Translations under genes and position numbers: made by a program
Source of the DNA: Promethearchaeota archaeon
Lineage (GTDB): Archaea; Asgardarchaeota; Lokiarchaeia; Sigyniarchaeales; Promethearchaeaceae
Assembly: GCA_016933055.1 (NCBI GenBank)
Contig: JAFGBS010000009.1
Coordinates: forward strand, 480,001 to 512,000
Direction: 5' to 3'
DNA: 32,000 nt
In this document: piece after piece, positions 7,833 to 25,359 of the stretch
Position numbering within the stretch: the stretch's first letter is position 1
How the letters are laid out: each line of letters begins with the position of its first letter
The notes under the pieces: generated by a model
The model's database searches: none
Told to the model about the DNA's origin: nothing
What the model saw: the letters and a program-made list of their open reading frames with translations, nothing else

Positions 7833-7907
7833 TGGTGCCGGTAGAGGGAATTGAACCCCCGTTAACGGATTCACAGTCCGTGCGCCTAGCCACTAGCAGA
7901 TACCGGC
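7833..7907 (-). tRNA. tRNA-His(GUG), CCA encoded, discriminator A73
   Basis: Reverse complement folds as GCCGGTA TC TGCT AGTGGCTA GGCG C ACGGA CT-GTG-AA TCCGT TAAC GGGGG TTCAATT CCCTC TACCGGC A CCA (75 nt). Confidence 0.95.
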
Positions 7908-7933
7908 ATTATCTGTTAAAAAAATAAAATACT

Positions 7934-25253: not shown

Positions 25254-25359
25254 GCCAAGGTCGCCTAGCCTACTTTGTGCTTTTTGCACAAGTCTAGAAC
25301 GGGAAGGCACTGGACTGAAGATCCAGGCATCGGGTGTTCAAATCACCCCCTTGGCACCA
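25254..25359 (+). tRNA. tRNA-Phe(GAA) with a 29-nt D-loop intron; CCA encoded
   Basis: GCCAAGG TC GCCT AGCC [intron] CGGGA AGGC A CTGGA CT-GAA-GA TCCAG GCATC GGGTG TTCAAAT CACCC CCTTGGC A CCA; all four stems pair once the insert is removed. Confidence 0.95.
25271..25299 (+). other. Non-canonical tRNA intron (position 17/17a) bounded by a bulge-helix-bulge motif
   Basis: Central CTAG/CTAG 4-bp helix with 3-nt bulges CCT and AAC; internal hairpin ACTTTGTGC-TTTTT-GCACAAGT. Confidence 0.88.

Follow-up and report, generated by a model that had tools for sequence, protein, structure and literature searches.

Histidine tRNA is probably recognised by a rule undescribed for archaea in the Asgard genome that carries the window (i.e., the whole 32,000-nucleotide stretch of DNA that was analysed, G000:C17:480001-512000), since its sole tRNA-His has A73, has no G-1, and is accompanied by no G-1-adding enzyme. 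Judged by its sequence, the gene is a working one and a single-copy member of a histidine-identity variant that extends across the lineage. We lean towards the prediction that this tRNA-His matures without a -1 nucleotide and is charged by a synthetase (HisRS) that does not depend on G-1.

Textbooks treat G-1 as a nearly universal identity mark of tRNA-His. Reviews describe it as missing only in a clade of Alphaproteobacteria and in some protists, and present C73 as the rule for archaea (PMC4338351, PMC6471195, PMC9976931), A73 being stated to have arisen in early eukaryotes (PMC3245924). The earlier note on this DNA, made from the sequence, had pointed to prior documentation of A73 in archaea as a possible objection to its reading; we found none, the reviews giving C73, and a search of the full-text literature returned no paper on A73/G-1-less tRNA-His in Asgard archaea.

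A tRNA-His Gene without G-1 and C73

The gene (Table 1) is called as tRNA-His(gtg) by ARAGORN and matches the Rfam model RF00005 over its full length (57 bits, E 6e-10, for a gathering score of 29), and the His-specific covariance models R1 and R2 score it at 90 and 83 bits. Its acceptor stem is GCCGGTA/TACCGGC, with G1:C72; it has U8-C9, a variable loop of 4 nt (UAAC), a D stem with two G-U pairs, and a D loop of 8 nt, AGTGGCTA. The G-1:C73 pair canonical in archaea and bacteria is absent, a T and an A occupying the two positions. On direct reading, every feature that the earlier note had listed (i.e., the stem, A73, CCA, T-1, U8-C9, TAAC, and A37) is correct. The gene is preceded, on the same strand, by a block of translation genes (aIF5B, S6e, L7Ae, and S28e), and contigs of related strains match it up to 7833 and then diverge from the window; one assembled metatranscriptome contig spans part of a related tRNA. 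We also observed that the 5' leader is identical in the same-genus genome G001 despite a HisRS only 77% identical, and that the 3' flanks differ.

Table 1. Features of the tRNA-His gene, in positions of the window
Feature	Position	Strand	Basis or remark
tRNA-His(GUG) gene, 72-nt body plus encoded CCA	7833..7907	-	ARAGORN, Rfam RF00005
Position -1 = T, no encoded G-1; pairing with A73 possible	7908	-	direct reading
Discriminator A73	7836	-	direct reading; common to all 22 genes of f1, f4, f7, and f16
Genome-encoded 3' CCA	7833..7835	-	direct reading
Anticodon GUG in loop CUGUGAA with A37	7872..7874	-	ARAGORN position 34, Rfam alignment
5' leader cagataat	7908..7915	-	conserved in same-genus G001 and two related metagenome contigs

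Several other tRNA genes were noticed on the way. ARAGORN calls a "tRNA-His(atg)" at G000:C27:146392-146514 (minus strand), which we rejected as a histidine tRNA because of its UGG-type loop and its intron; this gene of 123 nt has a long insert in the D-arm region and the loop UUUGGGA, is missing from the Rfam-model list, and is probably a tRNA-Pro(UGG). In the window, at 25254-25359 (plus strand), lies a tRNA-Phe(GAA) gene with an encoded CCA. Its D loop is interrupted, at a site not canonical for introns, by roughly 30 nt that include a small hairpin; ARAGORN does not detect this gene, and the Rfam match covers only model positions 9-63 (30.6 bits). A tRNA-like gene at G000:C17:774772-774847 (plus strand), for which ARAGORN gives a four-letter anticodon (cgta), has an 8-nt anticodon loop and reaches only 35 bits with Rfam.

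Distribution of the Variant across Asgard Families

tRNA-His covariance models were built and run on 151 genomes of the order and 151 genomes of the phylum, and further tRNA-His candidates were retrieved by coordinate. The tabulation of N-1 and N73 across Asgard genomes that the earlier note had proposed places A73 without G-1 in families f1, f4, f7, and f16, and C73 in seven other families. All 22 tRNA-His genes recovered from the former (22 genomes) have A73 and no G at -1: nine genomes of the window's own family f1 (G000, G001, G002, G004, G005, G007, G009, G010, and G011), three of the sister Loki family f4 (G016, G018, and G022), nine of f7, the Heimdallarchaeaceae, including both closed Heimdallarchaeum genomes, and one of f16 (G199). 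Exact protein look-ups identified three f1 members as Promethearchaeum syntrophicum MK-D1 (G010), Lokiarchaeum ossiferum (G009), and Harpocratesius repetitus (G011), which makes the window's genome that of a Loki-type Asgard archaeon; the Asgard origin supposed by the earlier note was right. An encoded G-1:C73 was found in 36 genomes of f2, f3, f8, f9, f17, f19, and f24, and C73 with a T at -1 in one genome of f3 (G017). The labels of f24 conflict, a neighbouring gene being named "Thorarchaeota" (NCBI) and the HisRS falling among proteins labelled Hodarchaeales or Heimdallarchaeota, and we relied on neither name.

When the 22 A73 genes are aligned, 97% of the stem cells are paired, and compensatory changes occur at 20 of the 21 pairs, in all four helices; some of these relatives have A1:U72 instead of G1:C72. 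Such structure-preserving covariation shows that the A73 tRNA-His genes are under selection.

The f3 genome G017 carries two tRNA-His genes in tandem (L004:1472-1544 and L004:1688-1790), one of them intron-bearing. Both have T-1, C73, A1:U72, and a G4:G69 mismatch, and the genome also contains a Thg1-like gene (L078). This looks like the archaeal route by a Thg1-like protein (TLP), perhaps with 5' repair as well.

The Partner HisRS

The only HisRS gene of the window's genome lies outside the window, at G000:C28:154551-155879 (TIGR00442, 317.8 bits for a cut-off of 286.75; other matches do not exceed 34 bits). Between the groups into which Asgard HisRS divide, identity is about 25%. Type A, Thermoplasma-like, is found in f2 and f3, serves G-1:C73 tRNAs, and keeps an RPQ loop, whose Gln corresponds to the Q118 that reads C73 in the E. 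coli enzyme (PMC10100707). The C-periphery enzymes of f8, f9, f17, and f19 also go with G-1:C73 and keep the Gln (RPQ or RAQ). Type B, found with A73 in f4 and in the rest of f1, has lost the Gln118 equivalent (YDEPKK, YDEPAP) and carries PP plus an insert of 7-14 aa where the T. thermophilus enzyme has its G-1 pocket, Gly72-Gly73 (PMC4357726). Type D (about 500 aa), found with A73 in f7 and f16, keeps the Gln; its pocket reads DD, DE, or EK in f7, DD being the Caulobacter substitution (PMC4357726), and Phe-Gly or Asn-Gly in f16. A tie between this long Heimdall-type HisRS and the Caulobacter type was considered: the DD is suggestive, but no alphaproteobacterial protein occurs among its best 120 relatives. 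Finally, the C-core enzymes share one motif-2 loop, FRDGP[IV]KxGR without Gln, and serve A73 tRNAs in the window's genus and in g2, and G-1:C73 tRNAs in f24. The type B or D enzymes of the A73 families are about 25% identical to the types of the G-1:C73 families, and A73 co-varies with divergent HisRS types.

Inspection of motif 2, as the earlier note had advised, showed that the window's HisRS (FRDGPxKxGR) is without the Gln that reads C73; this Gln is replaced by Lys, the pocket reads N-G-K-R, and f24 shares both loops yet has G-1:C73. The enzymes of the window's genus and g2 (G000, G001, and G002), together with those of five metagenome relatives, branch as one clade with full support within C-core, which also holds proteins labelled Hodarchaeales or Heimdallarchaeota, DPANN archaea, a second HisRS of Firmicutes, and f24, and the closest sampled Asgard relative of the window's HisRS serves a G-1:C73 tRNA. 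Because the C-core loops are common to all and the f24 tRNA is G-1:C73, the window's HisRS has no apparent private adaptation, relative to its C-core relatives, at the known G-1/N73 contact sites. Among solved structures, its best match is the human cytoplasmic HisRS (207 bits, and 157 bits for Thermoplasma). The eukaryote likeness claimed by the earlier note therefore stands for A73 and for the HisRS of this genus, but not for the G-1 addition pathway.

The distance between the tRNA-His gene and hisS is 0.3-10 kb in several type B genomes. Those of the Promethearchaeaceae have the A73 gene at 0.3-5 kb (9 kb for L. ossiferum), which suggests that the A73 tRNA-His and the type B hisS are a co-inherited pair; the loci concerned are L121, L133, L135, L051/L128, and L053/L123 (in G005, G007, G010, G011, and G004). 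We also considered whether tRNA-His adjoins the HisRS gene in the window's genome; it does not, as the two are on contigs C17 and C28, and this linkage is lost in the window's genus. In our simplest reading, the ancestor of the window's genus and g2 would have swapped its type B HisRS for a C-core one while keeping the A73/G-1-less tRNA.

Maturation of the 5' End

It is hardly credible that the observed state is an artefact, i.e., that a base-calling error affects 7836 or 7908, or that a canonical tRNA-His resides in the missing part of the assembly. The assembly is indeed a MAG of 36 contigs and 3.76 Mb, 91% complete. However, G001 also has T-1, A73, and CCA, and contigs of two unrelated metagenomes span the tRNA-His, its CCA, and its 5' leader at 95-99% identity. 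These relatives and independent contigs rule out a sequencing error at either position, so that the A73 and the missing G-1 reported by the earlier note are real. A second, canonical C73 gene, which that note had envisaged as the functional copy, was looked for in the window's genome and none was found: neither ARAGORN, nor the Rfam model, nor a direct scan in which a GUG anticodon arm had to precede a T arm detects a tRNA-His locus in this 91%-complete assembly other than the one described here. The 22 A73 genomes likewise yielded no canonical copy, the only tRNA-His found in the single-contig genomes of relatives is of the A73/no-G-1 type, and the compensatory changes maintain pairing in all helices. 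Another reading is that G-1 is added post-transcriptionally opposite A73, as in eukaryotes, by an unrecognisable enzyme or by a Thg1 encoded in unassembled DNA. A gene with A73 and without an encoded G-1 is exactly what eukaryotes have, the solved structure nearest to the HisRS of this genus is that of the human cytoplasmic enzyme, and TLPs can be minimal and very divergent, for instance in Ignicoccus (PMC6471195). We nevertheless hold such an addition to be very unlikely, given the searches for the enzyme. Pfam PF04446 (Thg1), even with the limit relaxed to E<=1, has no match in the window's genome, and it has none in the 35 genomes searched from the A73 families (f1 0/14, f4 0/4, f7 0/13, and f16 0/4). 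Five of these 35 are assembled into a single contig. With PF04446, TLPs do turn up in 16 genomes from the other Asgard families sampled; one of them, G017, is alone among the Loki genomes in combining C73 with T-1, and serves as an internal positive control. A custom profile of twelve Asgard TLPs, run unfiltered on the six frames of the window's genome, had its best match, of 14.9 bits, in a 62-aa ORF, which was taken as chance, and PF14413 gave a single match of 16.6 bits within a 1325-aa frame, under the cut-off. Moreover, archaeal TLPs are template-dependent and would thus put U, rather than G, opposite A73 (PMC3245924). The eukaryote-type Thg1 offered by the earlier note as an explanation was thus not borne out.

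The 5' end could also be formed by keeping the encoded nucleotide. RNase P would then leave -1 on the tRNA by cleaving after -2, its site in bacterial and archaeal G-1:C73 tRNAs, T-1 would pair with A73 in an acceptor stem of 8 bp, and the HisRS would recognise where the 5' phosphate lies, not which base carries it. Several observations are in line with this: a T-1 in 15 of the 22 A73 tRNA-His genes, including all three genomes that bear the window's HisRS type; a leader conserved in related strains; and relatives of this HisRS type that serve tRNAs with a paired -1:73. It is known, besides, that the base itself counts for less than do the -1:73 geometry and the 5' phosphate (PMC4357726, PMC4338351), that the Aeropyrum pernix HisRS accepts A-1 and C-1 (PMC9976931), and that U-1 tRNA-His occurs in human cells (PMC5238791). 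We nonetheless consider a kept U-1 unlikely. The enrichment of T-1 seemed strong when compared with the non-His A73 tRNAs of the window's genome (2/17), but it is gone when compared with the other A73 tRNAs from f1, f4, and f7 loci (16/32). T-1 being no commoner than in other tRNAs, the kept U-1:A73 pair has no statistical support. Furthermore, the seven remaining A73 tRNA-His genes have an A (five) or a C (two) at -1, unpairable with A73, and since MK-D1 and Harpocratesius are among them, a kept pair is not the rule of the clade; in the window's genus, such a pair is possible because all three genomes with that HisRS type have T-1. What distinguishes these tRNA-His genes is an A in place of C at position 73, and a -1 that is never G. 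The U-1:A73 pair suggested by the earlier note is accordingly without statistical backing, T-1 being ordinary for leaders in these genomes.

We therefore come back to a tRNA-His that would carry no -1 nucleotide. The pre-tRNA would be cut at G+1 by an ordinary archaeal RNase P, whose RNA is present in the window's genome (80 bits across the entire model, a little below its gathering score), and, as neither Thg1 nor TLP was detected, no nucleotide would be added at -1. The lone HisRS would then charge this G-1-less A73 tRNA via other determinants (most likely features of the acceptor end, together with the GUG anticodon), which is how Caulobacter, Acanthamoeba, and Trypanosoma manage without G-1. 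In the window's genus, the partner is the laterally related C-core HisRS, resembling the Hodarchaeales-type and human cytoplasmic enzymes, and not the divergent type B of the family. As there is no lineage-specific change at the contact sites of this HisRS, and its f24 relative serves a canonical tRNA, we infer G-1 independence from the context and not from the sequence of the enzyme. Of the three alternatives that the earlier note had left side by side, the Thg1 is not supported, the kept U-1:A73 pair is the less likely one for want of statistical support, and the G-1-independent HisRS comes out as the best supported, through the co-variation of A73 with divergent HisRS types.

Consequences for the Evolution of Histidine Identity

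As a rule, entire Asgard families combine A73 with the lack of G-1 and Thg1; both well-known cultured strains belong to them, as do the closed Heimdallarchaeum genomes. The short list of G-1-less systems thereby gains an archaeal case in which the partner HisRS is of at least three types, and the existence of cultures makes direct testing feasible. The window's genus offers a natural experiment, the synthetase having apparently been swapped and the A73 G-1-less tRNA retained. The Asgard state also bears on the origin of the eukaryotic A73/Thg1 arrangement. One conjecture, which we hold to be quite doubtful, is that eukaryotic A73 was inherited from Asgard ancestors already devoid of G-1:C73, and that G-1 came back later in eukaryotes, through untemplated addition by Thg1. 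If this were true, the window's genus would be a living intermediate, with a HisRS resembling the human cytoplasmic one, an A73 tRNA-His, no G-1, and no Thg1.

Comparison with Known Systems

The Alphaproteobacteria of the Caulobacter crescentus clade (PMC3064791, PMC4357726) resemble the present case in having A73, no encoded G-1, no Thg1, and a HisRS that diverges from those of neighbouring lineages; their Asp-Asp at the G-1 pocket is also found in the HisRS of Heimdallarchaeaceae. However, the Caulobacter tRNA-His has a G1:U72 wobble and a D loop of 9 nt with U20a, whereas that of the window has G1:C72 and a D loop of 8 nt without U20a, and the window's HisRS belongs to another clade (C-core), with N-G-K at the pocket. 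The cytosolic systems of Acanthamoeba castellanii and Trypanosoma brucei (PMC4338351) also have neither Thg1 nor a gene-encoded G-1, and use HisRS of the archaeal/eukaryotic kind, the trait having arisen several times. Unlike the window's lineage, these organisms are eukaryotes, T. brucei has U73, and their mature tRNA ends and enzyme kinetics have been measured, whereas in the window's lineage the 5' end and its charging are inferred.

The eukaryotic cytosolic tRNA-His, with A73 and an untemplated G-1 added by Thg1 (PMC3245924), shares A73 and the lack of an encoded G-1 with that of the window, whose genome, in contrast, is without a Thg1 gene. Moreover, the motif-2 loop of human HisRS is two residues longer and contains an Ala-Met-Thr insert, both missing in the window's HisRS. 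Human tRNA-His also occurs as 5' variants with U-1 or with no -1 nucleotide (PMC5238791), so that an A73 tRNA-His can carry either end in living cells; these variants, however, are minor species beside the G-1 form. Finally, in the archaeal TLP route of Methanothermobacter, Methanopyrus, and Pyrobaculum (PMC3245924), G-1 is not encoded either and is added in a templated way opposite C73. This route occurs in the same order as the window's genome (i.e., in G017, with T-1/C73 and a TLP gene), whereas the window's genome combines A73 with the lack of any TLP.
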